A DNA stretch of 43,482 bases from Chrysochromulina tobinii (Eukaryota), in the NCBI GenBank assembly GCA_001275005.1, contig JWZX01003312.1, forward strand, positions 1-43,482. Reading direction: 5' to 3'. The position numbers and the translations under genes were made by a program. Every line of letters starts with the position of its first letter. Positions within the stretch are counted from its first letter, which is position 1. The notes under the pieces are model-generated. The model was not told where the DNA came from. It did not search any database and worked only from the letters and a program-made list of their open reading frames with translations. Positions 3,542-43,482 of this stretch are shown one piece after another.

Positions 3542-6500
3542 ATGTTTTGGTGGTTGGCATTTCTGATGGCTCCTCGAAAGCCGTCTTCGAAGGCACTAGC
3601 AGCTGAGGTTGTGCCCGTCATCATTGACGAGCCGCAGCTACAGGTACTGCCAGTCGCCAGTGACGATCGCCCCACGGTCGTGGAGAAATGCCGCCTGAAG
3701 GGCAAGTGTTTCGAGGAGCAGGTGACGGTGAGAAGCGAAGCGTCCTATGTAATTGAGGCCTGCAACGAGGATGGCGTCCAGCGCCCAGTGGGTGGCGACC
3801 CTTTCTTCGTGTACATTCGTGGACCGTCCATGATTCGTGCGAGGGTCACCGATAACAACGATGGGACGTACCTTGTGCAGTGGAAGCCGTCCACATCAGG
3901 CACGTACACAGTTGCCGTCTCGCTCCTCGGCGTGAACTTGCCCGGCTCGCCGGCTACGGTTCACGTGACCACGACGAAACCCTGTCCGATGAAGACGGTC
4001 GTGCGCGGTGAGCACCTTCATCACGCAGTCTCGCGCCAGCAACACAACTTCGACGTCCTCTTCAAGGATAAGTTGGGGAAAGTGGCACATGCGGTCGACC
4101 TCGACGTGTTCGTCGAGCCGCTCCCGCCAAACAGCCCGCGCTTCCGCCTTCACGAGACCTTGGTCGCCGCCAAAGAGGCCGCGGCCGCCGCCGTGGTTGC
4201 GACCCCCGCGCCCAAGGCCAAGAAGACCAAAGCGACAGGCGCTACAAAAGGTAAGGACGCGCAGCTCAAGGCGCAGCAGGAGCGCGAGAAGGAGGAAGCC
4301 GAGCAGGCTGAGAAGGAGTTGGAGGAGAAGCTCGTACGCGAGCGCAATGCAAACAAAAGAAACAAGAGACCTTCCAAAGAGTTCCCGCCCATGCCAGCCC
4401 TTCTCAATCTAGAGAAGCTGAGCAGTGGCGGTGGCGGCACCCCGCGCCGTGAGTACTCGGCCCAACGCGAGGCCGATCGGCAGGGCAGTTCCCGCACCGG
4501 CACGGCGCGAAGTGCTCGCCCGGACCGACGACCAGAGAAGCAGGTCACGGTGCGCCATCGGATGATGCGCGTGAAGGTGGGCGACAAGCCGTTGCTCGTG
4601 CGCGCTGAGGCACACAAGGGATCGGAGGAGGTAGGGCGCCTGTTGCCGGGGCAGGTGGTCACAATCATCGAGGAGCAGATCGACGAGGATGGGGAGGTGC
4701 GCGCATGCATCTCGCTCGATTCGATCGGCGATGCGGTTGACGACGCGGCCGCCTCCTACCGCTCGGAAGTCCCCGACGCTCACTACGACGCCGCGCTCGG
4801 CACGCTCACGACGACGCCCAATCCGTCGCATCGAGGGGTAGGGACCGTCCGTCCACTCGCGCCGCGCATCGGGATGGGCATGCTCAGCTCGGCTGCAGCC
4901 TCGCTCGGCCTCGGCGGGAAGCTCCTTGGCGCCGTGGACCCCGCCCTTGGCGCCAAGGACCCCGCCCTCACGGCCCCCACCGTCGCCATACGCAGCTCCG
5001 ACGGTGCGAATGCCGCGCCGGAGTCCGCCGTGGTGAGCGCGGGGGTGCCGACGGCGGCCGTTTTCGTGGACGCGTCAGACACCGCGCGGTCCCGAGAGGC
5101 CGCCAGCGAAGAGGGCGCCGATTTTCGCAGAGGCAGCAGCAGCAATAGGAGCCGACCCTCCAATCAAAACGCATCGTTCGTGCCGGTGAGTGGCGCCAAG
5201 GCGCGTGCGCCTAGCGCCGCCCAGCCCAGCGCAGCACGCACGACGGGATGGGTGACGCTAGTCAAGAACGGCCAGAAGCTCGTCTCGTCCCGTGTGCAGC
5301 TCGGCCCCGGCTCCCGCCGGCAGTACATGCAGCAATGGGCTCGTCGTAAGGCGAATGACCGCGCGATGTCCGCGCCCGTCGGCGCCGACGGGCGCCCAAC
5401 CGAGGCGCCCGCCGTGTTCAAGAATATGCCCACCCGCAACGAGATCGAGGCAGATCCATCGGGGATCGCGTTTGCCTTTGGGGGAGTCGAGCCCGGTACA
5501 CTGCATGCACGTGGCCAGTTGCTCGAGGTGCACAAGGCCGCGTACTCGGTCGGGCGTGCCGGCCAATACCTGCTGCACGTGCGCATGCGCCAAGCGGCGT
5601 GCTCCCTGCCAGGCTCGCCCTTTGTACTCACGGTCGTACCGGCAGGCGCGTATGCGAAATCCTCCAAGCTCCCTTCCCATCCGCTGAGTGGGATGGTGGG
5701 TACGGCGGAGAAGGACGGGTGCGAGTGCGAGCTGAAGACGTCGGATAAGATGGGGAATCCCTGCATCCTTGGCGGTGCCAAGGTCGAGATTCTCATCGTC
5801 GAGAAGGCGGGCGACCCGAACGGCCGCACCAAGCCCTCCAAGCCCGCCAAGGGCGGATCAGACCTTGCAGTGGGCTCGACCGAGGCACGCGAGAAGGCCA
5901 TCAACACTGTGGTGGTGGACAGGGGCGATGGCACGTACACGTTGCGCTGGACCTCGAAATTCTCGGGCACCTTCCGCACGCGCGTCGTGATCGACGGCGA
6001 GGACGTCGTCGGATCACCTACCATCTTCAAGCTCATCTCGTCCACACCGGACCTTACCAAGACCGTGCTCACCAGTGAGGGGCTCAAGAGCGCCATGGCG
6101 GGCCGCCCCTCGACGGTGCAGATCGCCTTCGTCGACCAGTTCCTCAACACGGCCTCCCCTAACTCAAAGTTCCAATTCGGCATCGCTCTCGTGCCGCGCC
6201 ATGGTGGCGAGCGTGATAAGGTGGCCAAGGTGCCCGAGCATAAGTTCCAAGGGTCGTGGACGGGCGGCGCGACGGGCATCTTTGAGCTCCAGTACGTGCC
6301 CACGCAGGCGGGCCAGGCGGATCTGCACGTGTGGTGCATCCCCGAGGGAAAGGGCGAGCGGCTCGCCCTTCCGGGCTCACCCTTCCATCTGCACATTGCC
6401 GAGGGCCCCGCGAGCGCCGTCGCATCGGTCGTCGAGGGCTGGACGAAGGTCATGAAGGACGATAAGAATGAAAAGTTCGCCAAGGACAAGAATGCGGACC

Positions 6501-7950: not shown

Positions 7951-10437
7951 ATGCGCCGCCGCCGCCATCGCGGCGGCCTCGCTCACGCCCTGATTATTGC
8001 CGTGTGCTGGCCAAGCGCACGTGGCCGAGATTCCACTCCATTCACTGTGGACGTCGTTGCCAACTGCACGCCATTTGCTGAGGAAGTGCTGCGCGCCCAC
8101 GCTGGATCGCCAATCATCCTGACCTACTGGACCAATGCGCCTACGGACACCTGGCTGCTCGGTCTCACAGCTGCAGCGCACGGCCTGCCGCTCGTTGTCG
8201 TGGGGCATGGTCGAGGCCGTTTTAACATAGCGAGTGGCACGGGAGCCAAGATCACTGGCTACCTACGAGCGTTGCAGATCGTTGAAGCCGTTGCACGGAG
8301 TGCTGCAGTCGTGGTGACAGACGCAACCGACACTGTCATCGTGAACGCGCCAAGCGGCCAAACTTCTGCCACTAAGGCGATCAAGCAAGCCTTGGAAACA
8401 TCAGCCGTGCTGACCTCTGCCGAGTGCGGCTCATGGCCAAAATGCTACGCCCCGCTGTATGCACATGATTTGGTGCACCAGCAGTGCCGCGCGGAAGGCA
8501 ATCCTACGTGCTTTGCCAACTCAGGCGCTTACCTTGGTTCCGCGGCCGCGCTCAAGGCTATGTTCGCGGAGCAGGTGCGAATGATGACCAGCTTTGCCGC
8601 TTTGCGGAAGAAGAGGCGGGGAACGCTCCGGAACATGAAAGTTGGCGAGGTGCACAACCATTCAATCGGTGGCGTGGAGCTTAACGACGATCAGGCTGTA
8701 CTGCACTACCTCTACCTCAACCAGTCACGAGACAACCTTGGCGTGACACTTCGGATGGACGTGCACAGCTCCTTCTTTCTCAGCACCTGGAGATGCCACG
8801 ACCGTGTCTGGCCACGTGTCCATACTGTCGTCGGTCCTTTTGAGCGGTGCCACGAGATGAAGCACGATCCCGCAGCGCGAATCATTCAGCCGCATCCAGG
8901 TTCGGCTTCTTCGCTGCGATACAACGCGAGTGACGGCAGTGAGCAGCAGCCCTTTCTTCTGCACGCCAATGGGAAAGATGGCTTCCTGCAACCAAGCCGC
9001 GTGCGAGCCAACCCGAGGCTGAAGCACCTCGCTGACACCCAGGAGCGCATGCGCAACGCCCCTGAAGCGCTTTTACGACACCCAGTGTTGTTCCTCGACT
9101 CGCACAGCCAGCCTTGCCATTCCATGAGCTTGGCGGACTTTCTTCGCACCGGGTCCTCCTCTATACTGAATCGTCGCGCGCGTGCCACGCGAGTTTCTGT
9201 ACCGCCTCCGGCTCCTTCTGCTCCGCTGTCTCTAATTACGAACTCCCCGGGCGCCACCGGCCGATCAGAGCACAGGTGTTGCGCATTCAGCGACCACCCG
9301 ATGGTGGGCCCGGCCTTGGGCTTCAACTGCGACGCCAAAGGAGGGGACGTGCATGGGGGGTGCCGCAATGCCTGTTGCGAGGGGAAGTGTTGTGTGCCGA
9401 TACTACAATGCCGATACTACAATGCTGGTGCACTCGGCGGAACAGTCTGCGCCGATACGGCCTCCAACCCAGAGCTCAAAGCGGGACGGGGTCCGAACTA
9501 TGCCCACTTCATGCTCGCACTGGTGTACCCGCTACTGACGGCCATGGACGCGGGCATGCTTCGCGATGGCTCCGCGAGCCAACTGATGCTCGTCTACGGC
9601 AGTCAGAACATGGTCCTAGTCGCACGCCATAAGCTGGAGCGCATCCTGGGCTCAAACGTGACGTGCAAGCGAGCACTCATCTCGGAGGACGAGCTTAAGG
9701 CAGCGTGCAGCAGGGAACGGGTCATCACGGTACGAGTGCCGGTCATGAGCTTCTACAACCGAACCTTTTACTCTCGCGCACGCCTCTTTGCGGATGTGGT
9801 GTCGAGCAGGCTGGGCCTCTATCGGCTGCCGTTGGTGCGGCCTGCACGGTCCGTGGGCCAAGTCACAGGCCTCGATCTGCGAATTGTGGTCCTCTTGCGT
9901 GCGAATAGCACCAACTCGAAATCGCTCGAGGTGCGCGAGCGGCAGGTGCACAATCTCTCTCTAGCGTGCGATCCGCAGTATGCACGTGCACTGGGAGAGC
10001 GCGCTGGTGTGCAGCTCGAGTGCGTCAGCCTGGGTGCGCAAAGTTCGATGGAGCAGAATGCGCGCGCGATTGGTGGCGAGAGAACCATCGGGCTCTTGGC
10101 CGGGCATGGCGCAGGGCTTGCAAACCTAATCTTCATGCGACCCGGCGCCGTGTTGGTCGAGATCGATTCGGTGGCGAACAAGGACACTGATCGCAACATG
10201 TATCAGATGCTTGCACACGCCGTCGGTGTGGTGCCGACGAAGTTGTGGCTCGACAACGCTGGGCGCCATTACCCCGGCTTGCAATCGCAGCCCGTGCGCC
10301 ATCGGATCTCGCCTAAACGGCCGGGCTCAACGGGAGGTTGGCTCAAGGGGAGATACTCGTCCAACGTGCTCCTCAAAGAGGCTGTCCTAGCAGCCACGGT
10401 ACACAACATCACCCGGCGTGTGATAGGAACACGTTAG
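7951..10437 (+). CDS. Two-domain glycosyltransferase: N-terminal PLOD/LH3-GT-like domain plus C-terminal GT61 (DUF563) domain, 828 aa
   Basis: N-terminal signal/anchor. GT-A-like motifs VVVTDATD, SAECGSWP, FANSGAYLG, DDQ, LHANG. GT61 motifs NYAHFM, GHGAGLANLIFMRPGAVLVEI, MYQMLAHAVG. Confidence 0.8.
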   Translation: MRRRRHRGGLAHALIIAVCWPSARGRDSTPFTVDVVANCTPFAEEVLRAHAGSPIILTYWTNAPTDTWLLGLTAAAHGLPLVVVGHGRGRFNIASGTGAKITGYLRALQIVEAVARSAAVVVTDATDTVIVNAPSGQTSATKAIKQALETSAVLTSAECGSWPKCYAPLYAHDLVHQQCRAEGNPTCFANSGAYLGSAAALKAMFAEQVRMMTSFAALRKKRRGTLRNMKVGEVHNHSIGGVELNDDQAVLHYLYLNQSRDNLGVTLRMDVHSSFFLSTWRCHDRVWPRVHTVVGPFERCHEMKHDPAARIIQPHPGSASSLRYNASDGSEQQPFLLHANGKDGFLQPSRVRANPRLKHLADTQERMRNAPEALLRHPVLFLDSHSQPCHSMSLADFLRTGSSSILNRRARATRVSVPPPAPSAPLSLITNSPGATGRSEHRCCAFSDHPMVGPALGFNCDAKGGDVHGGCRNACCEGKCCVPILQCRYYNAGALGGTVCADTASNPELKAGRGPNYAHFMLALVYPLLTAMDAGMLRDGSASQLMLVYGSQNMVLVARHKLERILGSNVTCKRALISEDELKAACSRERVITVRVPVMSFYNRTFYSRARLFADVVSSRLGLYRLPLVRPARSVGQVTGLDLRIVVLLRANSTNSKSLEVRERQVHNLSLACDPQYARALGERAGVQLECVSLGAQSSMEQNARAIGGERTIGLLAGHGAGLANLIFMRPGAVLVEIDSVANKDTDRNMYQMLAHAVGVVPTKLWLDNAGRHYPGLQSQPVRHRISPKRPGSTGGWLKGRYSSNVLLKEAVLAATVHNITRRVIGTR

Positions 10438-10852
10438 GCGTGCAGGTATCTTATAGTTGTTAGGTCACCACAGCTCCTGTGCAGTTACCGGTGTCCCGGC
10501 TCCCCCCGGTGTTTATTGAACCGGTGCCGGATGACGATTGACGTCATCCCTTTTGGATGTGTAAACTCAAGCTCGCATGCATTGTGTTCCATATCCATAT
10601 GCGTTCAAAGGGCGAACTCCGTCACGTCCGCCCGGTTGTCCGCTTCCCTACCCTGAGCGACGAGGCCCGCCTCCTACGCCAGCCAGCCATCGCGTGTTGT
10701 TGTTGTTGTCGTGTCCCACACTCCCTTCCCTGGGGGTTTCTGAGGAATTGGGGGGACGTCGTGTTCGTAACTCTTCACATCCCAAACAGAGCCCAAGGGC
10801 TGTTTAAATGCTGCAAAGTTGATGCGCTTTCCAAAACAAGAAGGTCCGCTGT

Positions 10853-13110
10853 ATGCTCGTCGGCGAGCTGGGAATGCCTCTCGGCGAGCTGGGAGTGCCT
10901 CTCAGCACTTTGGTCAAAGCGCGAGTCGGCGACGTCTACAGTGGTCAAAGCACGAGTCACGGGAGTGCATGTGTAGACGTCGCCGACTGGACTAATGGGC
11001 ACGGTAAGACGTGCACAGACTACGCCTTCGCGTGCGCCGACGGCGACTTCAAGCCCGAGTTCCGCTGGCTGGCTGGAATGGAGTTCCACTCGCCCGAGAC
11101 AGCGTGCTGCGCGTGCGGTCGGCAGACGCATGGACGGTCGCGGCCGCCGCCGCCGCCGGAAGTGCCCAAAACCGTGCACGGGTACTCTTTCCACATCTCG
11201 TCGTACTGCCGCGGCGCCGACCGCGAGGTGAAGAAGCCCACGTTCGCAGATTGCGAGTCGCACTGCGCGAGCAGGAAGTGCGCGTGCGCGCACTTTGGCA
11301 ACGGCCTGTGCCGCATGGGCTACACGTACCTCGGGCTGATCCACTCCAAAGGTGACTTCAGCGCGATGGTGCGGCCCGACGCGGTGTCGGACCCGGGTGC
11401 GCTCGCGGCGCAAGCACGCGAGGAGGCTACGCCAGCGGAGACGTGCAGAAGTTCGCTCGCGCGCCGCATGCCGCCGAAGTTCTACATGTACGACGGGCCC
11501 GAGTTCCTCTGGGGCGAGCGCCTTGCTGCGTGCTACCATCGCAAGTATGGGCACGCACCGTGGGCTATGGCCAAGTTCTTCAAGAACAACACGGGCTACA
11601 CCGAGGCGGGGCCGGCGCCGCAGGAGGATCTGTCACACGCGCTCTGGCTGCACACGAGCCTCGTGCGCCACCGGCATCGCACCAAGGACCCGTCCGCCGC
11701 CATGCTGTACGTCGTTCCAGCCTTCGGCTCCCTCTCGGAGGCGACCGGTACGTGTGAAGGGAAGACTCACACCGAGCGTCTGGCGGACGCTGCGGCGACG
11801 ATGAAGCGGAGTCCGTGGCTAGCCACGGCGGCCGCGCGGCACGTCGTGTACGCGGCCGCGGACCGGTCCGACCTGTCTCCCCTCGGCGAGCTGGGCATGC
11901 TGCTCAGCAAGGCTGGCGTGATGGCCTGGTGCACGAGCCCATCGCGCTGCTTCGGGCGCTTCACGAGGCGCGTCGAAATCCCTATGCTACCGTTGCTCTC
12001 GCTCATGCACCCCAGAGTGCACCCGCGCCTCGTCGGCGAGGCATGCCCGCGGGAGCGCGATGGGAGCGCGCGAAGCGGCGTGCCGCGCCGTCACACCACC
12101 GTCTTCTTTCGGGGCTCGCATTGCGATTCGGTCGCGGCCCAGCAGGTACGCGTCAAGCTCGCCGACCTTCGCTGCATGCAGGTGCTCACCACGGCGCCCT
12201 CTTTCCACAGGTACGCGTCAAGCTCGCCGACCTTCGCGACCTAGGCGAGGGCACGACAGTGGACGTCAAGTTCACGCGCGGTGGGCCCAAGCTCAGCTCG
12301 TCGGCGCGCACCGCGCTCGGAGGGAAGGACGTGCGGATGCCGTACAACACGGACCTGTACGCCCAAGGGATGCTCCTTCGCGGCATGCAAGTGCTCACCA
12401 CGGCGCCATCTCCCCACAGGTACGCCCAAGGGATGCTCCGCGCGGACTTTTGTGTGCTGCCGAGAGGGGACGAGGCCAACCCGGGTCGACGTCTTTTGGA
12501 CGCAGTCGCTGCTGGCTGCGTGCCGATGATCATTGGGGATACGATTCGGCTGCCTCTCGCGCCGCTCATCGCGTACAAGAACTTCACCGTTCGTGTGCCC
12601 GAGTCCGAGTTCCTGCGCGACCCGCACGCGGCCGTGAACGAGGTGCTCACGACGGCGCTCACACGCTGATGACCTCTGATTGCCTCTGATTGCCACTGAT
12701 TGCCTCCCTCATTGCATGCAGGTGCTCATGACGGCGCTCCCCACGCTGATGACCTCTGATTGCCTCTGATTGCCACTGATTGCCTCCCTCATTGCATGCA
12801 GGTGCTCCGGACGGCGCTACCCCACCTCGGGGCGCTGCGCCGAGCGCTCCTCGGGGCACGCGACCAGCTGCTGCTCGGCACGGGTACCGGCCCGCTCGCG
12901 GCCAACCACACGGCAACCGCGCACGGGTCCGACCTCGCACTCCTCGCGGCGGGGCGCACTTTCTGCCCGAGGGCGCCTGCCACATTTAAGGCGTGCGGCT
13001 TCGACGGCCTCGAGCAGGTGGTCCCGCGCTCAGCACCCGCCACCAGAGGCAGTACTGCACCCCGTCCCGCACACGGCACACCACGCGCAACAATCGTAAA
13101 GTATGTGTGA
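10853..13110 (+). CDS. Exostosin / GT47 family glycosyltransferase; predicted exons 10853-12145, 12211-12356, 12420-12642, 12802-13110 (~656 aa; start uncertain)
   Basis: GT47 motifs KFYMYD, RTKDPSAAMLYVVP, VFFRG and, after splicing, YAQGMLRADFCVLPRGD...RRLLDAVAAGCVPMIIGDTIRLPL. Three GT-AG introns restore one frame. Cys-rich N-terminal modules (~10970-11310). Confidence 0.85.
12146..12210 (+). mobile_element. 65-nt intron, introner-like (27-nt copy of downstream exon start + shared 38-nt cassette)
   Basis: GTACGC...CCACAG. 12146-12172 is identical to 12211-12237. 12173-12210 is the cassette. Removal repairs the frame. Confidence 0.75.
12357..12419 (+). mobile_element. 63-nt intron, introner-like (20-nt copy of downstream exon start + shared cassette)
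   Basis: 12357-12376 is identical to 12420-12439. Cassette at 12382-12419. Removal restores the GT47 motif YAQGMLRADFC. Confidence 0.72.
12643..12801 (+). repeat. 159-nt intron made of two head-to-tail GT...AG units (79 and 80 nt) with TGATTGCC(T/A)C microrepeats
   Basis: Units 12643-12721 and 12722-12801 are nearly identical, each GTGCTCA...ATTGCATGCAG. Contains an in-frame stop; removal joins ...AVNE|VLRTALPHL. Confidence 0.85.
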
Positions 13111-13305
13111 TCTTACCTTGTGTTCCTTTTACTCGAACGAGAGTGTCGACAAGACAAAAGTGTTTTTTAGTGTCAAGAAGTTCCGCCAAAGTATCCGGAT
13201 ACCGAAAGCGGCCGCTTTTAATTTGATTTTGGACCAAAATTGGAAAAAAAGGTACTTGAAGCGGCGTCTCGGTTCTCTCATTGCGCACGTCCATCAAGGC
13301 ACTCA

Positions 13306-17577: not shown

Positions 17578-20500
17578 TCAGATCGCGAGCATCTCGTCCT
17601 CACGACCTCTCGACTCGTCAAAGCGCGGCTGCGGCGGCAGCCCCGCCGTCGCGCGCTCTTGCGCAAGCGGCGCGGCCGTGAGGTCGGAGAAGATGGCCGC
17701 GGGGGGCGAGGCAAGCAGCCCGTGCGAGCCCGCGAGGGTGGAGGCGCGCGGCTTCATATTGGCCTCCACTTTGACCTGAGGCGCGCGCAGCCCCCGCGCA
17801 GCTGCCGGCACCGGCCCGGCGCTCGGCGAGGCGGTGGCTGGTCCCATGGCCGTGAGAGTCGCGGCCCACGAGCTCTTCGAGAGCATATCTCCGGGAGAGA
17901 GCCCGAGGAGATCGCCCTCGCGCGCTGTCTCCATCGGAGGGAAGTCCTCGAACTTCATCAGCATTGGCGACTCGGGCGGCGGCGCTGGCGGCGGCGGCGG
18001 CGCCCGTCGCTGGCTGAGCGGCGGCGACAGCAGCGAGGCTAGCGATAGCTTCTCCTCGGCCACGGGCGGCGCGGCTGCCTTGGCCTGCAAAGCAGCTGCC
18101 GCCATGCTGGACGTGGTCGGGGGCGGCGGCGGACCAGGCAGCTTCGGCACGGTCTGCTTCAGCATCGAGGCACGCCGGTGAACCGGCAGTTTCGAAGTGG
18201 CGGCGCCTGGTACAGCGGCGCTCGGCAGCAGCGACTGGCGACCTGCGAGCGACTGGCGACCGGCGAGCGACTGGCGACCGGGGTTTGGCAGCAACGACGG
18301 GCGCGGCAGCAGCGACTCGCGTACCTTTGCGGGCGGCTCCTCCGCCGGCGGCGGCGGCGGGGGCGGCGCCGGCGCCAGCGGTGGAGAAAGGAGCTCGCCG
18401 AGGGGGCTCAGCAGGCTCGAGCCCTCGACTGGGCTCCGCAGCTGTCCATAGGCGGCGGCGCTCACGGCGGCGCTCTCCATCCCGGACACGTGGCTCGCCG
18501 TCCTCAGAAGCCGCCCGGGCGTGTCGAGGAGCCGCCCGGGCGTGCTCACGACGGCGGAGACGGCATTCGAGAGCTCAAGGCGGCATGCTTCGAAGAAGCC
18601 GAACGGGGTGCGCGCCTTAGCCTTGCTATTGGGCGTCGGTTGCGGGCGCGCGTGTACCTTGCTGCTGGGCGTGGGTTTCGGCTCGGGCATGGCCTGCAGC
18701 ATCACGCCCCTTGGCTGCTGATACGGCGGCGCCTCGACCACAGGAGCCGCCTCCTTGTGCTTCGCGCCGCCGCCTTCGGCGCCGCCCTCGGCTTCACCCT
18801 CGCCGCCGTTGGCATTGGCCGCGGAGCCGAAGCCAGCAGGCGGGATGCTCACGCGAGGGGAGAGCGGCGCACGGCGTGCGGAGAAGGGCTGGCTAGACGG
18901 CGCTGTCGTGGGCGGCGGCCCTCCGTCTGTGGAAGGAGTCGTCGTCGGCTGCGCTTCGAGAGCGGCCTCCGGCGCGGGCGTCGCGGCCAGTCCCGCCGCC
19001 CACGACGGCGCCCCTGGGCTCGTGAGCGAGGCTGGGGGGGGCAGCGGGGCGAGGTCGTCCGCCCACGACGGCACCCTAGGGCTCGTCAGCGAGGCTGGGG
19101 GAGGCAGCGGGGCAAGGTCGTCGTCGTCGTCGATGTCTTTGTCAATGGCAGCAATGGCCGCCTCGGCGGCCGCCTTGGCCCGGGCCGCCGCCGCCACCTC
19201 CGCCGGCGACGCCGCCACCACCCCTCCCGTGGCCGTGAACTGCCGGCTGCCCAGCACGGCGCTGCCCAGCACGGCGCTGCCCAGCACGGCGCTGCCCGGC
19301 ACGCGCGGCGTCAGGGCCTCTCGGAGCTCACGGTCCTTGCGCATCGCCTCCTCCCGAGCAGCCAGCAGCTCGGCGTCCTTGCGCTGGGCCTCCTCCGCGA
19401 GCGACGAGAGCTCCGACTCGAACTCCATGAACAGCCCGTGCTTCTCCTCGCGCTCGGCCTGCGGGTCGGTCGGTGTCGAACGCGCAGAGCCGTCAGCGCA
19501 ATCACAGGGCCAACATAGAGGCCATCCGAGTGGCCATCAGAGGCCATCCGAGAGGCCATCAGAGAGGCCATCAGGGAGGCCATCAAGCGCACTTGTGCAC
19601 GCCGCTCCGCCTCGAGCATCTTCTCTTCCAACTCCAGCTTCTCCTGCTCCATCCTTTCCATCTTCTCGGCCATCATCACCTTCTCCTCGAGCTCGCGCAG
19701 CTCCACGCGTACCTGTGGGGAGAGGGCGCCGTGATGAGCACTTGCATGCAGCGCAGGGCACGGGCAGCTCGACGCGTACCGCGAGCAGCCGGCGCCAGCG
19801 CCCTTGCAGCCGCATCGCCGCCACCATCGCCGCCAGCTCGGCCGGCATCGCCGCGAAGTAGCCGCCAACGCGCATGCCGCTGCGCATGCCGCTGCCGCCC
19901 GTGCTGCCCGTGCCGCAGCCGCCCGCCCCCGCGTTCGTCGCGATAAGTGCAATCGTCGCGCGTGTGTGCCGGTCGTACGCCGCGCGCTCGCGCTCGCGCG
20001 TCTTGCGTCGCTCCTCGCGCAGCCGACGTGCGGACAGCCGAGCTTTGAGCCCTCGAGCGCCCGCCTCGAGCTTCGTCGCCGCGCCCGTCCGGTGCATTTG
20101 CGATGCGAGGGCACGGGCGGCCGCCTCGCGTTGCTTGACGGCTGCGTTCGTCCGTCCCTCGAGCGACGCACGCTTCATGGAGTAGTGCTTGCGAGCGAGC
20201 GCGCCGCGCACCGCCGTCTGCACCTTCACCACCGCGAGCAGACGATGGACCTGGCGTGCGCGTTCCTTGCGCGCCGCCGCCGCCGCCTCGCGCTTGCTAG
20301 CGGCCACCGCTCTGAGTGCCGAGAGGGCCTTGCGGGCGAGCGCCGCGCGCCACACGCACTGCAGGCGCACGCACGCCGCGCGCTCGGCCTTGGCTTGCCC
20401 TTTCGCCTCCCGCTGTGCCCGCGCCGCCACCAGCCGGCGCTGCTTCTCGGCCTTCTCGTCGGCCACCGCTGCGCGGCGCGTCGCCGCGACGCGACGACCG

Positions 20501-32140: not shown

Positions 32141-35100
32141 CCAATCGCAGCAGCCACGGCCGCAACGCGAGCGCTTCTGCTTCCTTCTCCATGTCGTCGC
32201 TGCCTGCGCAGCCGCCCAGCGTCGTGGATCTCTTCCTCTCGCTCAACGGACAGCAATTCACACCGCTCGGCTTCGCAGGGGAGCGGTTCACATACTACAG
32301 CGAGCCGATGATCTCTGCAATCTCGCCCTCGGGGGGTGCCATCGAGGGCGGCACGCGTGTGACACTCTCTGGCTCCTGGCCAGTCGAGACCGACGAAGAG
32401 GGCGATTCGAGGCGCCTGCTTCGCTGCCGCTTTGGGCGCGAAGTGGTGCGTGCGCAGCGCTCGGCCCACGGCGACCTCGTGTGTGAGTCGCCGCGGTTGG
32501 CTCGAGTCTTCGAGGCGGAGCTCACGAGCGTCGCCGAGCAGATGGCGCCCGACCTGCGTAATGCGTCGGTGCTGCCGCTCACGCAATGGCAGCTGGGAGA
32601 GGCGACGCGCGCCGGTAATGCATTCTACGCGCAGGACACTGCCCTCGAGCTGAACGCTGTCGCAGACCATGGTGTGGCACAGCCTCTCAGGGTCAGCTTC
32701 AACGGGCTCGACTACACCCGTTCACAGTTGCCGTTCCGATGGCTACTCCCGCCGCGCCTCGTCGATGTGCGACCCATCCTTGGCCCTGCGGACGGCGAGA
32801 CGATCGTGAGGCTGCGTGGCGAAGGGCTATGGGACGTGCCGCACTTGCAATGTCGCTTCGGTCCCATCGCTGTAGATGCGACCGTCGTCTCCGAGTGGGT
32901 TCATGCCGACGGCACGCCACAACGCCAGCTCGAGGCAACCTGTATCTCGCCTCCAATGGTGACCTTTGCCAATGCCACCTCCACGGCCACCGTCTCCGTC
33001 CCCTTTCTCGTCTCTTCGAACGCGCAGCAGTTTGTGGGCGAAGGCTTGGCGTTCACGTACTACGCCCCCACGCCGCTCAGCCAGCCGATGCGCCCGACTC
33101 TCGGCCCCCACTTGGGCGGCACGTACATTGGCCTGCCCCACGTACCCATCATCCGTGGAGCACGCTACCTGTGTCGCATCGGCGGCCCTGAGGGGCAGCT
33201 GGTGCCCGCGCAGATCGGACGTAGGGCGGGCCTGCCGAGCGCCCAGTACAGCGCCTACTTCGGAGATGCCGAGGACGACAACAGCATCGCCGCCGGCCAG
33301 GGTGCCCAGTACAGCGCCTACTTCGGAGATGCCGAGGACGACAACAGCATCGCCGCCGGCCAGGGTGGCGGCGATGCCGAGGATGCGAGGAGCGACGATG
33401 GCGTGGCCGTGCGGCCGGAGTTGATGTGCGCGATGCCCTTCGTCCCCGTCATGGCCGACGTCGGCATCGAGGTCTCCATGAACGGACAGCAGTTCGCGAC
33501 CGTCGATGCCAACTTCAGCTACCACTCCCCGATGGTCACCGCGGGCCTCGCGCCGCTGAGCGGCCCTTCCGACGGCGAGACGGACGTCCTCGTCCGCCTG
33601 GTCCACGTGTCGCTCAGCCCGCGCCAGCTGCTCGCGACGGCGCCCCAGATGCCTCCCGAGTACGTCTGCCGCTTCGAGGACACGTGGCGAGCCGCCGCGT
33701 TGGCCGAGCCGCCGCCGCTGCTCCGCGCGGATGAGCAGCTCAGTCCGAATCGAGGCGAACTCGGAACGACCATCTCACATGAGAACCGCTCGTCGCACTA
33801 TGCTCTTGAGGCTTTGCGCGCCCTCGAGTGCACGAGCGGGGGAGCCGAGAGCGACGTGGCCGCATGCGCGGCGCCCTTGGGCATGCTCACGCTACGCTGC
33901 AGCACGCCGCCCATGAGGGCCGTGCGCACCTCTGGCGTCGGCCCAGTGGTGACCGTCCCAATCGTCTCCGCCTCGGTCAACGCTCAAGACTTTGCCGAGG
34001 CGCGCAGCGCCGCGTTCCATTACTATCCGCCACCGCACGTCTCGTCCGTCCATCCGACGCTGGGGCCGCGCGCGGGGCGTACCATGCTGACCGTTCGTGG
34101 TTCCGGCTTGTACGGGCGAGGTGAGCACCACCTGTGCCGCTTCGTGATGAGGGATGATGAGCCTTCGAACCCGCTGCGCGGTGTGCCTCGTAACGCCACC
34201 GAGCGCTCGCTCGTGGCGCTCTCTCAGCAGCCTCCTCCCCTGATGGATTCGGAACCGTTCTACCCTCTGGCTGGGGCGGACGCCCTTTATGAGCCGCTGC
34301 CGCTGCTCACGCCCGCCAGTTATGATGCGCCCAGCCGCACGCTGCGCTGCGTCACCCCCGCCATCTGGCCAGCCGAGAATGCTGCCCAAACGGACGCACC
34401 GTCGATTCGGTTACGTCTCGAAGTGAGCGCCAACGGGCAGCAGTACACCTCTGATGGCGTCGAGTTCCTCATGCATGCAAGCGCCGTCCTGAGCCAATTC
34501 ACACCCTCGGGTGGACCAGCGGCCGGCGGCACGGCCATCCGCATCAACGGCTTCGGGCTGGCCAACGGCTCCGAGTACGTCTGCCGCGCGGGCGCCGCGC
34601 GCGTCCTCATGGGCGGCCGAATGGACTATGGGACGGGCCAGCTGCACTGCACCATGCCGTCGCATGCAGCATGCGAGCTCGCGGGCACTGAGATCGGCAT
34701 GAGCGCCGTCGCGGTCTCCACCAACGGGCAGCAGTTCTCGGCCGACTTTTTCTTCGAGTTTGCCGCGCCGGCCGCGGTCTCCCGCATCACGCCCGCCGCC
34801 GGCCCGCAGCTGGGCGGCATCCTCGTTCAAGTCCAAGGCGCCAACTTGCGAGCAGGCCACGCCATCTCCGGCAGTGCGCTGCCTGCGCTCTCGTGCCGCT
34901 TCGGCGAGACTTCTGTGCCGGCCACCTTTGAGAATGCGAGCGCCTCCGTGCTCTGCACCTCGCCCGCGCGCCCGCCCGGCGCGCTCGCCTTTGAGCTGAC
35001 GAGCAACGGCCAAGACTACACGCGCTCATCGATGGTGTGGGTGCAATACGTCGCGCCGAGCCTCTCCGCGCTCCAGCCGCCCGCGGGCCCGCAGCGCGGT

Positions 35101-38100
35101 GGCACGAGGCTCACGATTGCGGGCACTCATCTGCGCGTCTCCGAACTTGCGACGGACGCGCGGTACGTCTGTGGCTTTGGCTCTGGCCCGCCAATGTACG
35201 TGTGGCCTGAGCCTGCGGTCGGGATGGTACCCTCGGAAGGTGCCCTCCCCCCCAACGGCACGAATGCGACTGAGACCGTGGCAACTGGCAACGTGACGAT
35301 GCCACCGACGAACCGTACAGCTGCTGCGAACGCCACTGAGACCTCGGCACCTCCAGGCTCGCCTTCCCCTCTCGCGCCGCCGTCGATACCGCCTGGACTC
35401 CCGCCATTCCCATCACCTCCGCCCGACCGATCGCTCGCCACCGTCATCATCTTGCCCGCCGCCATGAGCATTGCCACCTACGACCCCAGCACTGGACTCC
35501 TCAGATGCCGTTCCCCCTCCATCGACCTGGCCGTGCTAGCCGCTCAATACGGCGCCAACGTTTCTTCGGGCGGCGACGCTCAGTACGACGCGAACGCGAC
35601 CAACCCCCGCTCGCTGCCGCTGCAGGTGCCGGTGCGCGTCGCACTACATGACCCACCAGACCAGCACTGGTCACCCCTCGAGGGCGCACTGCAATTCGGC
35701 TACTATGAGGACGGCGCACTCAACGTCATGAGTCCGCGCACTGGACCGGTAGCCGGCGGCACGCGGCTCGTGATCACCGGTGGGCCATTCGCACGCTACC
35801 TGAGCAGCTCCTCCCCCTCTGGAGGATCGTCTGGAGGGTCGTCGATGCCGATCGGCGCGGAGGCCTCCCTGGAGGAGGGCGACACTGAGCTGCAACGGTG
35901 CATCCTAGGCGACCCGTCCTCGGTCCATTCGCTTGCCTTCCCTCGTATTGACTCGGGCAGCCATCTCGTGTGCACCACGACGGCGCTCGCACGGAGCGCG
36001 AACGGTGCCGAGCCGCTCCTCTCATTCACAGGTGAGTCGCTCCTCTCATTCACAGGTGGGCAGGAGGACGTGGGCGCTCTCTTGGGCGGCTCGGTGACGC
36101 TCCTCGGAGGTGGTCGGCTGTGGAATGGTCTGCTCGAGCTGCCCGAGGTGCGCCCGGGTGGCCTCGTCTATGGCGGCGCGATCGTGACGCACGGCCTGCA
36201 GGCTCCGCACGCCGCCGCGTTCGACGTCACGTTCGAGGTGGCACTGCATCGACCGACAAGTCCGGAGGGCACCGCCGTGAGCGGAGGTTCAGTGGCCGGT
36301 GGCGTCTCTTTCAACTTTGGCCCCATTCCAGACGACGCGATTTTGGACGACGGTGGTTACGAGCAAGGCTTTGTGCTCACGCTGCTGCCTGCGGATGGGC
36401 TGCGCGTGCGCTCGAACGGGATCGAAGTTGGCTTCGACCCGAGCGCGCGCAGCAACGGCTGGACTCTGATGCGCGTGCGCAGCAACGGCACGCATGTGAG
36501 CGTCGCCCAGGACGGCACGTGGGTGCCCAATCTCATCGACGTCGCCGTCGCCCTCCAACCCGCCACCACCCCCGACGGCTTCGCGACGCACGAACGCTGG
36601 CGCTTCGCCTTCGGTGGGCGCCCGTCGGGGGACGTCGCGCATCAAGTGACGCATTTCCACGTGCGCAGCGTGAGCTTGCTCTCTTCTCTCACTCTACCCG
36701 TCCTCCATGCCGCCAATGGACAGCAGTTTGGTCCCTCCTCGCTCAATTTCACCTGGCTGCTGCCTCCGGTCACCTCGCACGTCTACCCGAGCAGCGGCGC
36801 CCGATACGGCGCCACGACCGTGCACGTGTACGGTGCAAACCTGGCAGGCGGTGACGACTACCGATGCCGCTTCGATGCACCCATGCTGCGCTCGCGTCCT
36901 CTCATCATGCCGGCGATCGAGGTGCCCAGCACGACGTCCTCGGGTACGTCGGTGCGCTGCGTGACGCCCGAGCTCCTCTCGACCGGATGGGTGTTGCTCA
37001 CTCTGACACTCAACGGCCAGCAGTACAGCCACACGGCCGTCAACTTCACCGTGCTCGGCAACGGCGCCGTCGGCGCCTCGGCCGCCCCCAGTCCCGCCTG
37101 GGCCAACCTCTCGTTATCCAGCTACTCGTGGGGGGCGGCGCATCTGGAGACGCTGCAGCTCTGGCCCGTGCTCGGACCGACGGACGGTCAGACCACCATA
37201 CAGGTCTTCGGTGCGGGCTTCGACGGCGGCACCGAGTTCCGCTGCCGCTTCCTCTCGCACTCTGGAGAGGTGCTCGGCACGGTCAACGCGACGCTTGAGA
37301 GCCCCTCAGCTGTCGTCGCAGCGTACCATCGTCACGTCCTGGCCTCGAATCAGACCGTGGGCCGACCGGTGCAACCCAATGCCGCCGAGGGCAGCTTGGT
37401 GACGACCTCGCCGACTGGCGGTGTGGTCGAGTCCGGCGGCTGGCTGGACGCTGGTCAAGCGCATCTGCTCACCTGCACCACTCCAGCGCACAACCAGAGC
37501 GACTTTGACAATGCAGACCCGACCGCTGCAACGCGCGTCGCCATTTCGGTCAACGGCCAGCAGTATTACTCGTCCGAATCGATGCGCTTCCGATACCACA
37601 CGCCGTCGCTCTTGCGCGTGTCCAGCCCACAAACGGGCCCAACCGACGGCGGCACGCTGCTGACCATCGCCTTCGCCAACGGCACGCTACCCCGAGCTGG
37701 AGGGCCCGTGCTGTGCAGGCTGGACGGCGTGGCGGTCGACGGCACCATCGCGGGTGCCGCCAACGAGCTCATCCGGTGCACCACTCCCGCCGAGCTGCCT
37801 CTCGTGCTCAACGAGACCTACCCGCAGCGTCTCGCGCTGTCGGGCTCGGCGCACCTCGAGCAGCCGGGATGGGCAGGGCGGCACAGCCTGCTGCACCTGA
37901 CACGCACGACGAGCTCCTACGGGCAGGAGTCCGACAGCGGCAGCGCCTTTCTGCATGCCCAGATGCTTTGGACGGCGCCGCACACCGTCGACCAGCCCCC
38001 GCCGCGGATTCCGCCGTGGCTGCGCGCGACGCTGCGACTGCGGCTGCGTGGCACCGCCTCCGAGAGCTCTTTCTCCTTCTCATACGGACAGTTGCCCGGG

Positions 38101-41100
38101 GGGGATGGAGCGGGCCGCGGCTTGGGCTTCTTCGGCATCGGCAGCGGCCTTCGCGTCAACATGATCACCAGACGAAGCGCCGCAGTTCGCAGGCCCACAA
38201 TAGTCTCCCAGCTCCTATACGTTGTCTACGACGGCACGACGCTCTACGGCCCAATCAACATCACATCGCCCCTCAATGGTGATGTGGGCCGTATTTTCGA
38301 GGTGAAGTACGACGGCAGGGGGTTGCATGTGCTCGTCAACACGCAGCAGGCCGTGAGCAACGCGTCGGTTCCCGGCTGGGCACCACGGCCTGGCTGGGGT
38401 GTGGGAATAGGCAGCTACTCTCGGTGCGAGGGTGAGGGCTTCTCTGGCATCGATGAAGCCGACGTGCTCGAATGGGATGTTGAGCGTGGCGCGAATGTGG
38501 GGCCTATTTCGACGCGACTCGAGGTGCACTGCTTCCACGGATTGCACTGATTGCACTGATTGCACCGCTTGCCTATTTCGACGCGACTCGAAGTGCGCCT
38601 CAATGGGCAGCAGCGACGGATTCCACTGATTGCACTGACAACCTCCCTAATTTGGAACGTATTCTCCCTCGTCTGACAGGTGAGCCTCAATGGGCAGCAG
38701 ATTGCGGACCACGCGCTAAGCTTTGTACGGTACCACGGCGCCCATATCTCGACCGTCTTCCCCACCTCGGGCCCCGTAGCTGGTAACTCGGAGATCACGC
38801 TCATGGGCGCCAATCTGGCGGGAGGTGATAACTACACGTGCCGCTTTGGCACAGAGGTGTCGCTCGCCGCGCTCCGGCCTGACGGGTCGGTCACGTGCTA
38901 CTCGCCGCCCAATTGCGCCGGATCGATGTTGGCGCAGGTCGCCCTCAATGCGCAGCAATACGCGCCGGGGGTCCAATACACTTATACGGGCGGCACAGCG
39001 TGCACGGGCACAGGTGGCCTGGCAACGGGCGGCGCCGCTAGCGATAAGGAGGGCACGCGTATGTACAGCCTGAGCCCGAACAGTGGCCCGCAGCTCGGTC
39101 AGACGCGGATCGTTGTGAGCGGCCAGGCCTTCAGCTTCGGCTCCGAGTACGTGTGCCAGGTCAATCGCAGCGCCACGTTCCAGCCCGCCTCGTACATAAG
39201 TGACTCCGAACTGGCGTGCTTCACTCCGTCAAGCAACCTGGGTGCGGTGAGCGTGCGCGTGTCGCTGAACGCGCAGCAGTTCGTGGGTAATGCCTCGGTC
39301 GACTTTGTTTTCCACGAGCAGCCGAGCGTCGCCTCGATCAGCCCGAGGAGCGGCGCGTCCGTGGGCGGCACCCTCGTGAACGTGAGCGGCAGCGGCTTTG
39401 CCGACGGTTCGCAGTACACTTGCGCCTTCGGCTCGTCCGTGGTGGGCGCGACGTTTGTGCCGTCGCTGGGCGTGATTTCGTGCTATGCACCAGCGGGGCT
39501 GTACGGCAGCGCGGTGGCGCTGAAAGTGTCGCTGAACGCGCAGCAGTACAGCTCGGAGGTGCACACGTTCGGGTACCACGGGGTGACGACGGTTGGGACG
39601 TACAGCCCGAGCTCTGGTCCGAGCGCGGGCGGCACGCGCGTGGTGGTGCGCGGCGCCGAGCTGTACGGCGGGAGCGACTACCGGTGTCGTTTCGGCGCGT
39701 GCGGCGCGTGCGAGGCAGCATGGAGCTGCGGCGCTTGCGTGGTGAACGCAACGTACGTGGCCGAGTCTGCGTTGGGTTTGGGCGACGACGCGATCGAGTG
39801 CGTGTCACCGTCTGGGAGCGCGGCCGGGGTCGCGTTGGAGGTGTCGCTCAACTCGCAGCAGTACACTCGTACGAACTTGAGCACGCTGGCGTTCACCTAC
39901 TACGAGGCGGCGGTGGTGTCGAGCGTGAGCCCGAGCCTGGGCCCTCGCGACGGCGCCACGCTCGTCACCATCCTGGGCAGCGGGCTGAACAGCGTGGCCA
40001 CCAACCTGAAGTGCCGCTTTGCAGTATCGGCCGGCGCGACGTCGTTCTCTTCCACGGCCGACGCGACGTACGACAGCTCAACAAACGGAATCCTTTGTCG
40101 CGCAACCTCTTCGGCCACCATTGGCTCCGCAGGGCTGCAGATCTCCTTGAACGGGCAGCAGTTCGGTCCATCGGCGCTCTCGTATCGCTATTACGCTCGG
40201 CCGCGCGTCTCGTCGCTTATGCCTGGGGCTGGGCCAATAGGAGGCAACACGACGGTGCAAGTCAGAGGCTTTGGCTTGGCCGGGGGCGACGGCGCCAGCC
40301 CGCACTACGTATGTCGCTTCGGCCTCTTGTCTGTTTCGGCGACCATGACGCTTTCAACTCCAGGTGAAGGCAAATTGACCTGCCTGTCACCCGCGAACAC
40401 TGCCTCTTCTCGTGCGCTCGAGGTGTCCATCAACGGCCAAGACTTCTCGGCCGACGGTGTCCTGTTCCGATGGGTGCCTCCGATTACTCTTGATGGTGGA
40501 AGTTCAAGCGGTACCTCCTCAAGTGGCACTTCTTCTGGTGGTATCTCCTCTGGCGGAAGCTCTGGAGGCCCCTCGCCTGGTTCAAACAGTACAGGTGTGC
40601 CGGTGCCACCAGGGTACCTCGCCCCTCCGTCGCCACCCTCCATCGACGAGGTGACCTTGCGCGAGGCCGCTTCGATCCGTAGCTTTGGGTTGTGCCCACT
40701 CTCCGGTCCGGATTTGGGTGGGACGCTCGTGCGTATCTTTGCGCCGAGCTTCCAAGGGGGCACGGACTACCGCTGCCGTTTTGGGGAGGGGCCGTCCGCG
40801 CTTGTCGAGGCGAGTTACTTTGCTCCTACTGAGATCCTTCGCTGCGTGACGAGCCCTCTGACGGCCGATGGCGCAAAGACGGTGGCCATCTCGCTCAACG
40901 CTCAAGACTTTGCGACGTACCCGGTCGCTTTCGCCGTCTTCCCACATCCACAACTCTTGACCTTTGTGCCCATGTCGGGTCCGCGTGCTGGAAACACGAG
41001 CGTGCTCATCAGCGGCTCTGACTTTCTCATCCCGGCGACGCCCACCGCGGCGCTTGTGGCGGCCGTTGCTAGCCACGGCCTCGACTTTCGTTGCCGATTC

Positions 41101-43482
41101 GGCCGCACCGCCGCGTTCCACATTGCACCGGCTACCTACTTGAACGCGAGCACGCTGCTATGCGCGTCGCCCGCGCGCGAGTGGCTCTTCGAGGAGACTG
41201 TTCTACCCATGACGGAAGACCTCTATCTCGGCTTCGACCCGGCGTTGCTAGTGCCGCTGCCGCACGTGGCGACGGGCCCGCTTGAGCTCTATGGGAACGC
41301 CTTTTGGGGGCCGACCTCCCTCGTGCTCACCCCGAGCGCACCCGGCAAGGCGGGTGGCCTGTCCATTGGGCTGCCAAACCCGGAGATGCCCATCACCTCG
41401 ATCAGGCTCCACTACCATGCTGTATTTGGAGGCGACGAGCTGCGGCTTGTAGAGGAAACACTGACCAGCAGCAACAGCAGCAGCGCTGTTGGTGCCACCG
41501 CCCTGGACGCGGTCCTTGCGCAGAATGTCACAAGCGGCGGGCGCGGGATCCACTTCTTCTACGGAGCTGGTGACCTCGAGGTCTTCGACAAGCCGCTCAG
41601 CCACGGCCTTTCACTCATCATGCACACGCGCGCGCCCGATTTGGAACACTCCACGCACAGCCGGCAGCTCTACATGCAGCACGCGACGCTTTACTACGAC
41701 GGGGCGCAGCTGTGGCAGCGGCGCATGAGCGTGCGGCTTCGTACGAACCTGCCCCGCGACCTCATCATTGAGGTGCTCAGGAGTGGGGACAGCCACGGGG
41801 TGACGGTGCGACACGGGGTGACGGTGCGATTTGATGACGAGGCACTTGTGAGCAACCTGGCCGTACCTGGCTGGCTGCCGCAGCCCAGGTGGCGCGTGGG
41901 CGCCACGGCCGCCACTGGGGAGCGCGAGGGCGACCTCCACTCGCTGCGCACGCTCTCCATCATGACGAGGCGCTTGCCGTCAGTGGTACCGGTAGCTCTC
42001 GCCATCTCAACCAACGCGCAGCAGTATACGCACGAGGTGCGCGGCTTCACGTACTTTGGCGGCAGTTACATGGAGGGCCAGGAGCGCTCGCCGCATGCGG
42101 CGCCACTCCACCTGTCGGCTGTCAGCCCATCCTCGGGGCCGATTGCGGGCGCGACCGCCCTCACGGTCACCGGCCAAAACTTCGCGGGCGGCAGCGCGTA
42201 CGTCTGCCGCGTTGGCGCGCAAGAGGTGGCTGCCGAGTTTGTGCCAGCCGCCGGCGAGGAGGCTTGGACTGGCCCCTCGGGCAGCACAGCCCACCCAGCG
42301 GGGAAAATGCTCTGCACCCTGCCCTCAACGTACGGTCCTGGGCAACGTCACGCTGCAGATCGCGCTGGTGTCCGAGCAGTACACGCCCCCCCGTCAATTT
42401 CACTTACCATGGGGAGTCGAGCATCGAGCGCCTCGTGCCAGGTAGCGGGCCCCGGCACGGCGGCACACGGGTGCAGATCAGCGGCGAGATGCTCGAGCTC
42501 GGCTCGCACTACGTGTGCGAGTTCAATGGCTCGCACGTGCCGGCTGCCCTCGCGCCGTCGACAGTGACTGAGTACTTGGACTTCACCCGTTCCAGGTCCG
42601 ACTTCCATCTGTCGCAGGCACTGCGACGGGTGGGCGCACCTCCGCACGACTGCCAACTGTATCACTCGAATGACCGCAGCCAGACTCCGAGCGCTCTACC
42701 AGCCATCGGAGAGAGTCGCGAGCAGCAGAGGGTCGGCGCGGCGCTCGAGGAGTGCCGCAACTCCCCTAATTGCGAGTCCGTCTACTACAACGAGTGCGAC
42801 GTCAGCCCGCATCCACTCTATTTGTGCAGCCGCGCCCTCGGCTTCGAGATGCGCGGACCCCCGCACAATGAGACTCACTGTGCGTTCCACAGACTCGGCT
42901 ACTACCACCGGGCCTACGGCATGCATTGCCTCGGTGCTTACTACGGCGCTTACCCAAGCGTCGAGGCGGCAGTGCAAGCATGCAGCATCGACCCAGGGTG
43001 TGGCGCCGTGTACGACCACCAGTGCGATTCCAGTGCCGGTGACGTCTACCTGTGTCCCAAGGAGACCATGTACGCATACGAGCACGAAGCCTCCCTGGCG
43101 TACACGCCGCCACACCAAGACCGATCGATGCGCGGGTCGTGCCTCTACCTGCGCCCACCCTGGCGCAGCACGCTCACGTGCACGACGCCCGCGGTCGAGA
43201 CAAACTCGACGGGTGCGGTTAGCGTGCGCGTGTCCCTGAACGCGCAGCAGTTCGTGGGCAATGCCTCGGTCGACTTTGTTTTCCACGAGCAGCCGAGCGT
43301 CGCCTCGATCAGCCCGAGGAGCGGCGCGTCCGTGGGCGGCACCCTCGTGAACGTGAGCGGCAGCGGCTTTGCCGACGGCTCGCAGTACACTTGTGCCTTC
43401 GGCTCGTCCGTGGTGGGCGCGACGTTTGTGCCGTCGCTGGGCGTGATTTCGTGCTATGCACCAGCGGGGCTGTACGGCAGCG
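27287..43482 (+). CDS. Giant IPT/TIG-repeat cell-surface protein (>5,000 aa, 3'-truncated) with EGF, FG-GAP/VCBS-like, EF-hand and lectin-like domains; predicted exons 27287-27416, 27536-30947, 31026-38523, 38680->43482 with two apparent +1 frameshifts (~42331-42335 and 42386-42392)
   Basis: Signal-like N-terminus. EGF CENDCSFHGVC..CECDIGWSGTDC after splicing. Roughly twenty repeats of P..GP..GGT.V...G...Y.CRFG...C..P...VS.NGQQF. Three GT-AG introns join the large ORFs in frame. Frame is open from 42393 to the window end. Confidence 0.88.
27441..27464 (+). repeat. (TC)12 microsatellite in intron 27417-27535
   Basis: Direct dinucleotide run. Confidence 0.9.
28501..28572 (+). repeat. CAG/CAA/CCG tract encoding polyQ/QP
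   Basis: Encodes QQQQQQQPQPQQPPPPQPQPQQQP in the IPT protein frame. Confidence 0.85.
30948..31025 (+). other. 78-nt intron whose first 22 nt copy the downstream exon start
   Basis: GTATGTGGACGAGTTGGGAGCT vs GTACGTGGACGAAATGGGAGCT at 31026 (19/22). Contains a stop; removal gives DG|YVDEMGAG. Confidence 0.85.
32104..32139 (+). repeat. (AGC)12 trinucleotide repeat encoding poly-Ser
   Basis: Perfect triplet run. Confidence 0.9.
33241..33366 (+). repeat. Exact 63-nt in-frame tandem duplication (AQYSAYFGDAEDDNSIAAGQG x2)
   Basis: 33241-33303 matches 33304-33366. Confidence 0.9.
38524..38679 (+). other. 156-nt intron containing TGATTGCAC microrepeats and an internal copy of its own exon-exon junction
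   Basis: GTGCAC...TGACAG. Removal gives STRLE|VSLNGQQ, the standard IPT end motif. 38571-38613 matches the spliced junction at 41/43. Confidence 0.85.
43211..43482 (+). repeat. Intragenic duplicate of 39240-39511 (>=272 nt, runs off window)
   Basis: Five differences counted by eye, all synonymous third-position changes. Confidence 0.92.

Follow-up and report, generated by a model that had tools for sequence, protein, structure and literature searches.

The exostosin (GT47 glycosyltransferase) gene in the window, by which we mean the whole 43,482-nt stretch of GC-rich eukaryotic DNA from Chrysochromulina tobinii that was analyzed, is interrupted at positions 12643 to 12801 (+) by two intron-like units lying head to tail. 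We interpret this 159-nt stretch as two copies of a predicted repeat-flanked intron. The ~22 nt with which the intron opens are nearly identical to the start of exon 4, and local re-copying between these two repeats, whether by a second template switch, unequal exchange or slippage, probably produced the dimer. In our view intron formation in this family is unusual, and dimers such as this one are a frequent side product of it. The origin of new spliceosomal introns is an open question, and its footprints are unusually legible here: the target duplicates are long, a site may be filled in one strain and empty in another that is ~98% alike, and both chimeric starts and dimers occur.

The gene model was built from PF03016 matches, homologs and ortholog alignment (all features +). 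Exon 1 (10823 to 12145) is a stop-to-stop open reading frame from 10823, with a PF03016 match (E = 1e-6) across 10994 to 12145 and support from homologs; exon 2 spans 12211 to 12356 by ortholog alignment, and exon 3, the GT47 C-terminal part, spans 12420 to 12642 (PF03016, E = 1e-17, and ortholog alignment). Exon 4 (12802 to 13110) again matches PF03016, and its first 16 nt, which encode VLRTAL, align with orthologs. Between exons 3 and 4 lie unit U1 (12643 to 12721, 79 nt, type B as defined below) and unit U2 (12722 to 12801, 80 nt), each running GT...AG; the earlier note's description of two near-identical units abutting without an exon between them is exact in its coordinates, and TRF reports a period of 80 with 94% matches. 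U1 comprises an imperfect, core-like copy of the exon 4 start of ~22 nt, CTCTGATTGC decamers, CCCTCAT and TGCATGCAG, and U2 shares this anatomy. The final 35 nt of the two units are identical and their starts differ, each agreeing with the start of exon 4 at 15 of 18 positions, a resemblance that had also been noted. Removal of both units together with introns 1 and 2 leaves a 609-aa frame from 10994, and stops arise if neither unit or only one of them is removed. The spliced product is gap-free at 12642/12802, and likewise at the other two splice points, against P0002, P0004, P0009 and P0010, the 4 full-length proteins among 9 aligned homologs. The dimer is confirmed as two units interrupting the exostosin gene.

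Raw reads carrying a single unit had been proposed as grounds for discarding the dimer, and DNA run X10, possibly from the same culture as the window, contains three distinct boundary contexts instead. Mismatch-free contigs cover exon 3|U1 (12396 to 12691, depth 70), the internal junction (12698 to 12771, depth 77.2; it reaches 24 letters to the left of the junction, short of the 31 required for bridging) and U2 end|exon 4 (12789 to 13200, depth 78.9), where the upstream reference depth in exon 1 is 79.5; single-copy depth in all three contexts fits exactly two units. The possibility that assembly duplicated a single intron draws on the short-read origin of the assembly, on the near-identity of the 80-nt tandem and on the short left side of the junction contig. 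Against this stand the three contexts themselves, the differing starts of the units and the common occurrence of dimers in other assemblies, and we consider such an artifact largely refuted, with a likelihood close to negligible.

The units belong to a family in which many introns share sequence. A metagenome scan with the core pattern gave at least 132 stretches, yielding 126 loci (635 kb) that come from several related assemblies or strains and were selected by that pattern; scans of viral contigs gave no matches. These 635 kb plus the window hold 283 cores and 131 type B modules among the matches listed, and 1980 contigs of one DNA run map onto 1.5 kb. A type A intron consists of a variable exon duplicate, the core and CCCCACAG, and a type B intron of a variable exon duplicate, decamers and either CCCTCATCAG or TGCATGCAG. 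Type C mirrors this layout: its GT is its own, and its 3′ end duplicates the end of the upstream exon; inspection of 29 matches gave about a dozen clear cases. The window has three predicted type A introns: intron 1 of the exostosin gene (12146 to 12210, +, 65 nt), with a 27-nt exact copy of the exon 2 start, a G-variant core (12173 to 12197) and a pyrimidine/CCACAG acceptor; intron 2 (12357 to 12419, +, 63 nt), with a 20-nt exact copy of the exon 3 start, a core (12382 to 12406) and CCCCACAG; and a 67-nt intron in a myosin gene region (19713 to 19779, −), with a copy of the downstream exon start, a core and CCCCACAG. Ortholog alignment supports the first two. The window's myosin shares 99% identity with P0041, which falls in a 90% cluster together with a Chrysochromulina parva protein, and the source is accordingly a Chrysochromulina-like haptophyte. 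We note that cores also occur between direct repeats without the CCCCACAG tail (e.g., L018 10170, L005 251 and L015 8991), and that on its reverse strand the core ends in TGCATGCAG (a palindrome) and contains GGTGAG; judging from these motifs, it may be spliceable in the opposite orientation.

These introns share an anatomy in which the flanking exon is duplicated. Exact direct repeats of at least 15 nt flank 147 of the 273 cores listed; random positions reach 6.6%, and shuffled pairs 1.1%. At 90/134 type A and 59/128 type B acceptors among the loci listed, the 20 nt that open the downstream exon have a copy upstream (at least 15/20), compared to 0.7% and 2.8% in the respective controls. Duplicates at the sites listed have a median length of 25 nt (10 to 90% range, 16 to 39) and ~4% mismatch, as scored at nonredundant sites with a scorable repeat (79/124 type A and 37/120 type B) over a range of 10 to 80 nt, with shorter repeats falling below the cutoff. 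GT starts 77 of 87 exon copies in type A at the loci listed, and 45 of 79 type A copies have 0 or 1 shared base left of the GT. Median intron lengths are 76 nt (type A) and 79 nt (type B), within a family range of 63 to 94 nt.

The family was compared with several established routes of intron gain. Similarity does not reach both intron ends, since types A and B open with 20 to 40 nt that duplicate the local exon and, by inspection, type C closes with a duplicate of the upstream one. The duplicates behave as variable-length TSDs of 10 to 40 nt, and their median lies well outside the fixed short TSD (3 to 9 bp) of a DNA-transposon (MITE) introner. By inspection, the listed inserts end in CCCCACAG or CTCATCAG, with neither the poly(A) nor the simple-repeat 3′ tail of a non-LTR retroelement (SINE/LINE), and terminal inverted ends amount by eye to only 5 to 7 nt plus the TGCATGCA palindrome. 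Nor do the introns fit tandem genomic duplication, in which both splice sites derive from a duplicated AGGT exon segment with no foreign insert, as the acceptor lies within the shared module. Folding of 12620 to 12830 was not better than that of shuffled sequences (z = 0.86), and a search of Rfam gave a single chance-level match (E = 4.2).

Other intron-like features occur in the same window (all +). In a composite intron-like stretch at 38525 to 38679, the first part is flanked by a duplicate of the end of the upstream exon, and its adjoining 87-nt part (38593 to 38679) begins with a copy of the downstream exon, with modules that differ from those of the dimer. A 78-nt intron candidate at 30948 to 31025 repeats the start of the downstream exon imperfectly over ~22 nt and has a 3′ module of another kind, ending in TAATTAG, while an acceptor-like sequence of 24 nt at 36010 to 36058 is duplicated in tandem to give two AG|GT sites 24 nt apart. 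The window also encodes one or more very large proteins with many IPT/TIG domains and FG-GAP and EGF repeats (27502 to 42567), and a 272-nt repeat, 98% identical, recurs in IPT/TIG-domain genes at 39240 to 39511 and 43211 to 43482.

Comparison of related strains points to recent activity. Two of 12 aligned orthologous pairs differ by one whole core intron with the frame otherwise intact (a 78-nt intron in L013 that is absent from L015, and a 63-nt intron in L109 that is absent from L019), and other orthologous pairs have unequal numbers of units or decamers. Filled and empty sites thus coexist, with their direction unpolarised because flanking repeats permit precise loss as well as gain. The suggestion of a mobile family is supported. 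Intron 2 of the exostosin gene and both strain-polymorphic introns (L013 ~836; L109) are stop-free multiples of three, with the core reading CMQVLTTAP in the stop-free frame, and intron 2 would, if retained, stay in frame without stops; young inserts may be tolerated unspliced. Intron lengths across the family have no overall bias toward multiples of three (34/27/26 and 21/17/12).

The internal AG|GT junction (12721/12722) is embedded in a 25-nt segment (12713 to 12737, +) that is present in the X10 junction contig and matches the G-variant of the core at 23 of 25 positions. With up to 6 mismatches allowed, this segment retrieves the cassettes of the three short introns (12173, 12382 and, on the minus strand, 19750), the U2/exon junction (12793) and one unrelated repeat (29369). 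The reported resemblance of junction to cassette is therefore real, but the reading placed on it, that the cassette is an intron 3′ end fused to an intron 5′ end, fails: CAAGTG is found in 200 and CAGGTG, with its AG|GT, in only 13 of the 283 distinct cores among the matches listed (the search pattern permitted both), and a core with the consensus CAAGTG is not an acceptor fused to a donor. A cut inside the G-variant core of intron 1 would give pieces of 36 and 29 nt, far under family lengths.

The junction is core-like because the start of exon 4 resembles the 3′ half of the core (13/16), the right half of the junction being an exon copy; the starts of U1 and U2 match the same half at 15/16 and 14/16. 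Among 189 family acceptors followed directly by GT at the loci listed, the two window junctions rank at the top (14/16 and 13/16), with 12/16 the best elsewhere, although L001 (14/16) and L086 (13/16) equal them under a broader acceptor definition. The complete junction of a type B end plus core is found in the window only, among the 126 loci listed; TGCATGCAG is a minor type B acceptor (3/129 outside the window among the loci listed, in L017, L019 and L030), and a dimer in L028 also has a TGCATGCAG acceptor junction.

The core-likeness of the junction might simply be a coincidence in which this minor acceptor precedes an exon whose VLRTA codons happen to resemble the core, a reading that bears on nothing but the junction and leaves room for slippage as the origin of the dimer. 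The use of TGCATGCAG elsewhere in the family, a bias of exon starts to GT(G/A)CGC, the genuine coding function of the exon 4 letters and the fact that this locus was chosen because of the resemblance all speak for it, but the unit starts lie nearer to the core than exon 4 itself does, and chimeric starts in L071 and L007 show the same core-ward shift. Exon starts behind the TGCATGCAG acceptors outside the window are unlike the core (5 to 7/16). With three thresholds tried, core-like exon starts at the loci listed are enriched behind family acceptors at 12/16 or better (6/222 versus 19/3705, p = 0.001) and not at 13/16 or better (2/222 versus 12/3705, p = 0.16). We regard coincidence as unlikely, and favor the reading that the exon 4 start, already resembling the core, drew core-derived letters into the copy, so that every boundary here reads core-like.

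Head-to-tail units with at least 75% identity stand behind 6/134 type A and 10/128 type B acceptors listed (16/262, the window included), although of the 10 on the type B side two or three are not clean dimers but short internal repeats. A broader census found 32 adjacent module pairs among the 273 sites listed, 25 of them flagged as tandem, and in 20 of these 25 the second unit starts like the following sequence or local exon (at least 14/18), with the other 5 not matching. For the 13 pairs with a resolved U1 start, the start of U2 resembles the exon more closely in 6 and U1 more closely in 3, with 4 ties. The window dimer is one of the 3 that favor U1, its U2 start matching U1 at 17/18 and the exon at 15/18. 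Trimers and tetramers of core-containing units also occur (L018 ~9868 to 10021, L048 ~4427 to 4542 and L118).

These counts bear on the proposal that the family spreads through circles or concatemers, in which excised introns joined 3′ to 5′ would be reverse transcribed and integrated by homology to give permuted units and dimers. This model predicts that the second unit equals the first, whereas slippage or reinsertion permits exon letters in the second, and the window dimer taken singly, with its U2 nearer to U1 than to the exon, is what a circle would also give and counts against local re-copying. Full-length intron circles are described from yeast and human (PMC10996645). The idea of a permuted unit holds in part: decamers lie upstream of 36 and downstream of only 3 of the 283 cores among the matches listed, and the dimer, one of those 3, does read in the permuted decamer-core order, but any insert between core-like repeats would read that way. 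The core consensus is not AG|GT, the full type B end plus core junction does not recur at the other loci listed, and the 5′ parts of the introns are locus specific; because the first 20 to 40 nt copy the local exon, whole introns do not travel. The local exon is copied at 20 of the 25 tandem junctions, and in 6 of 13 resolvable pairs U2 has exon letters that are absent from U1. We thus find spread by circles very improbable; circles would have been the bigger surprise, and they are unsupported. Local re-copying at the exostosin locus remains our preferred reading, with the dimer likely arising later than the intron itself, either through the template switching proposed below for the intron or because one repeat slipped against the other.

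How the modules reach new sites is suggested by the exon starts they adjoin. Introns that are nearest neighbors by module share more of their exon starts than expected, both in matches (3.86 versus 3.38 of 10, p = 0.004) and in the length of the exact run (1.49 versus 0.84, p = 0.0005; n = 99 for each, by permutation), a modest effect obtained with loci from several strains. Significance persists without the closest clan (p = 0.01 to 0.04), and exon nt 20 to 30, used as a control, show no such excess; across all pairs, module and exon-start similarity are uncorrelated (Spearman, −0.01). Chimeric starts switch from exon copy to core at shared bases (L071 +15452 and +16636; L007 −2509), and in these two loci the core-ward switch occurs where exons begin with GTGCTC or GTAAGCG. 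Exon-start sharing and these microhomology chimeras lend moderate support to homology-guided copying, as had been suggested.

We envision that, during repair or replication, the polymerase abandons its target strand, primes on the acceptor of another intron, with which the exon start shares a few bases, copies 40 to 60 nt of module and returns behind its exit point, which would duplicate the target by re-copying 10 to 40 nt. A duplicate that begins with GT would yield a spliceable intron, and selection would keep usable donors. In its general form, continual intron gain without a transposase, in which template switching primed by microhomology brings existing 3′ splice-site modules into new sites, each chosen through the donor's exon start, and the second splice site comes from the long target duplicate, we put this forward tentatively, as a possibility short of an even chance. 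A LINE-like RT could instead use a staggered nick to prime on a short RNA that has the acceptor at its end, and leave a long variable duplication, with the dimer as a second insertion at the same site or a later slippage. The variable duplications of 10 to 40 nt would suit such an element, as would the fixed 3′ end and the left-truncated cores in L029, L045, L052, L058 and L071, and the tandem decamers recall LINEs with repeat ends. It accounts less well for the listed copies, which have poly(A) at neither end, and for type C, whose fixed end is the 5′ one and whose 3′ end is host derived, and the chimeras and local copying of modules would require template switches regardless. We consider it distinctly unlikely, somewhat more so than coincidence at the junction. 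If homology-guided repair rather than transposition is at work, introns could be gained en masse by a route to which published introner screens are blind by design, and one-ended introners would escape any screen that needs similarity at both ends. The copying route is testable in this culturable alga.

At 12721/12722 an acceptor AG is followed directly by a donor GT, the sequence signature of a recursive site or zero-length exon, and both unit lengths lie within the family range of 63 to 94 nt. Recursive splicing at this position is plausible: from their lengths and splice sites, the two units could be spliced out separately, whichever goes first, or all 159 nt could leave in one step, and all three routes would yield the same mRNA. 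In RNA runs X11 to X16 no contig spans any splice junction of the gene, where coverage is thin, consists mostly of repeat-derived contigs and is uninformative on splicing; two RNA contigs end at 12162 to 12163, within the duplicated part of intron 1, and are ambiguous. The dimer offers a compact test of stepwise splicing of abutting 80-nt introns, and if spliced in this way such dimers would be natural zero-exon recursive introns.

Introners have been reported in Chrysochromulina, Emiliania, Prymnesium and Phaeocystis (Gozashti et al. 2022, PMC9860276), with TSDs of 3 to 9 bp, and of 4 bp in the Chrysochromulina family of Fig. 2C (PMC9860276; bioRxiv 10.1101/2022.06.06.494994), using a pipeline that demanded similarity within 10 intronic bases of both ends (PMC9860276). 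Like those described there, the introns studied here are short, repeated haptophyte introns that carry one splice site, co-opt the other from the duplicated target and, judged by eye, have no clear TIRs; unlike them, they have variable duplicates of 10 to 40 nt, and types A and B fail the both-ends filter, differences drawn from the published description only. Haptophytes are absent from the main text of the 2025 introner follow-up. Neither the motifs nor haptophyte introns with long copies of an exon start were described in the literature that we searched, and published introner sequence sets may contain these families.

The introner-like elements of Polarella and Symbiodinium, described as several classes with a fixed TSD of 3 to 8 nt per class (bioRxiv 10.1101/2020.10.14.339549), similarly take the 5′ splice site from the TSD and the 3′ site from the element, but in that description differ from the long variable duplicates, chimeras and dimers seen here. 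Intron gain by tandem genomic duplication and double-strand-break repair, as reviewed with the direct repeats of Daphnia (PMC3443670), shares with our family the flanking direct repeats and the use of duplicated exon letters as a splice site, whereas the filler here is drawn from a small set of shared splice modules, present hundreds of times, and lies between long repeats. Nested or merged Introner Elements in Micromonas (PMC3879977) likewise insert at or in one another, though as whole elements, while the second unit here repeats locus-specific exon letters. Full-length intron circles, which arise from the intron-lariat spliceosome according to PMC10996645, would read AG|GT at their 3′-5′ join as the dimer junction does, but the genomic pattern here is explicable without circles. 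The system lacks the similarity at both ends and the short TSD of an introner, yet it works like one.
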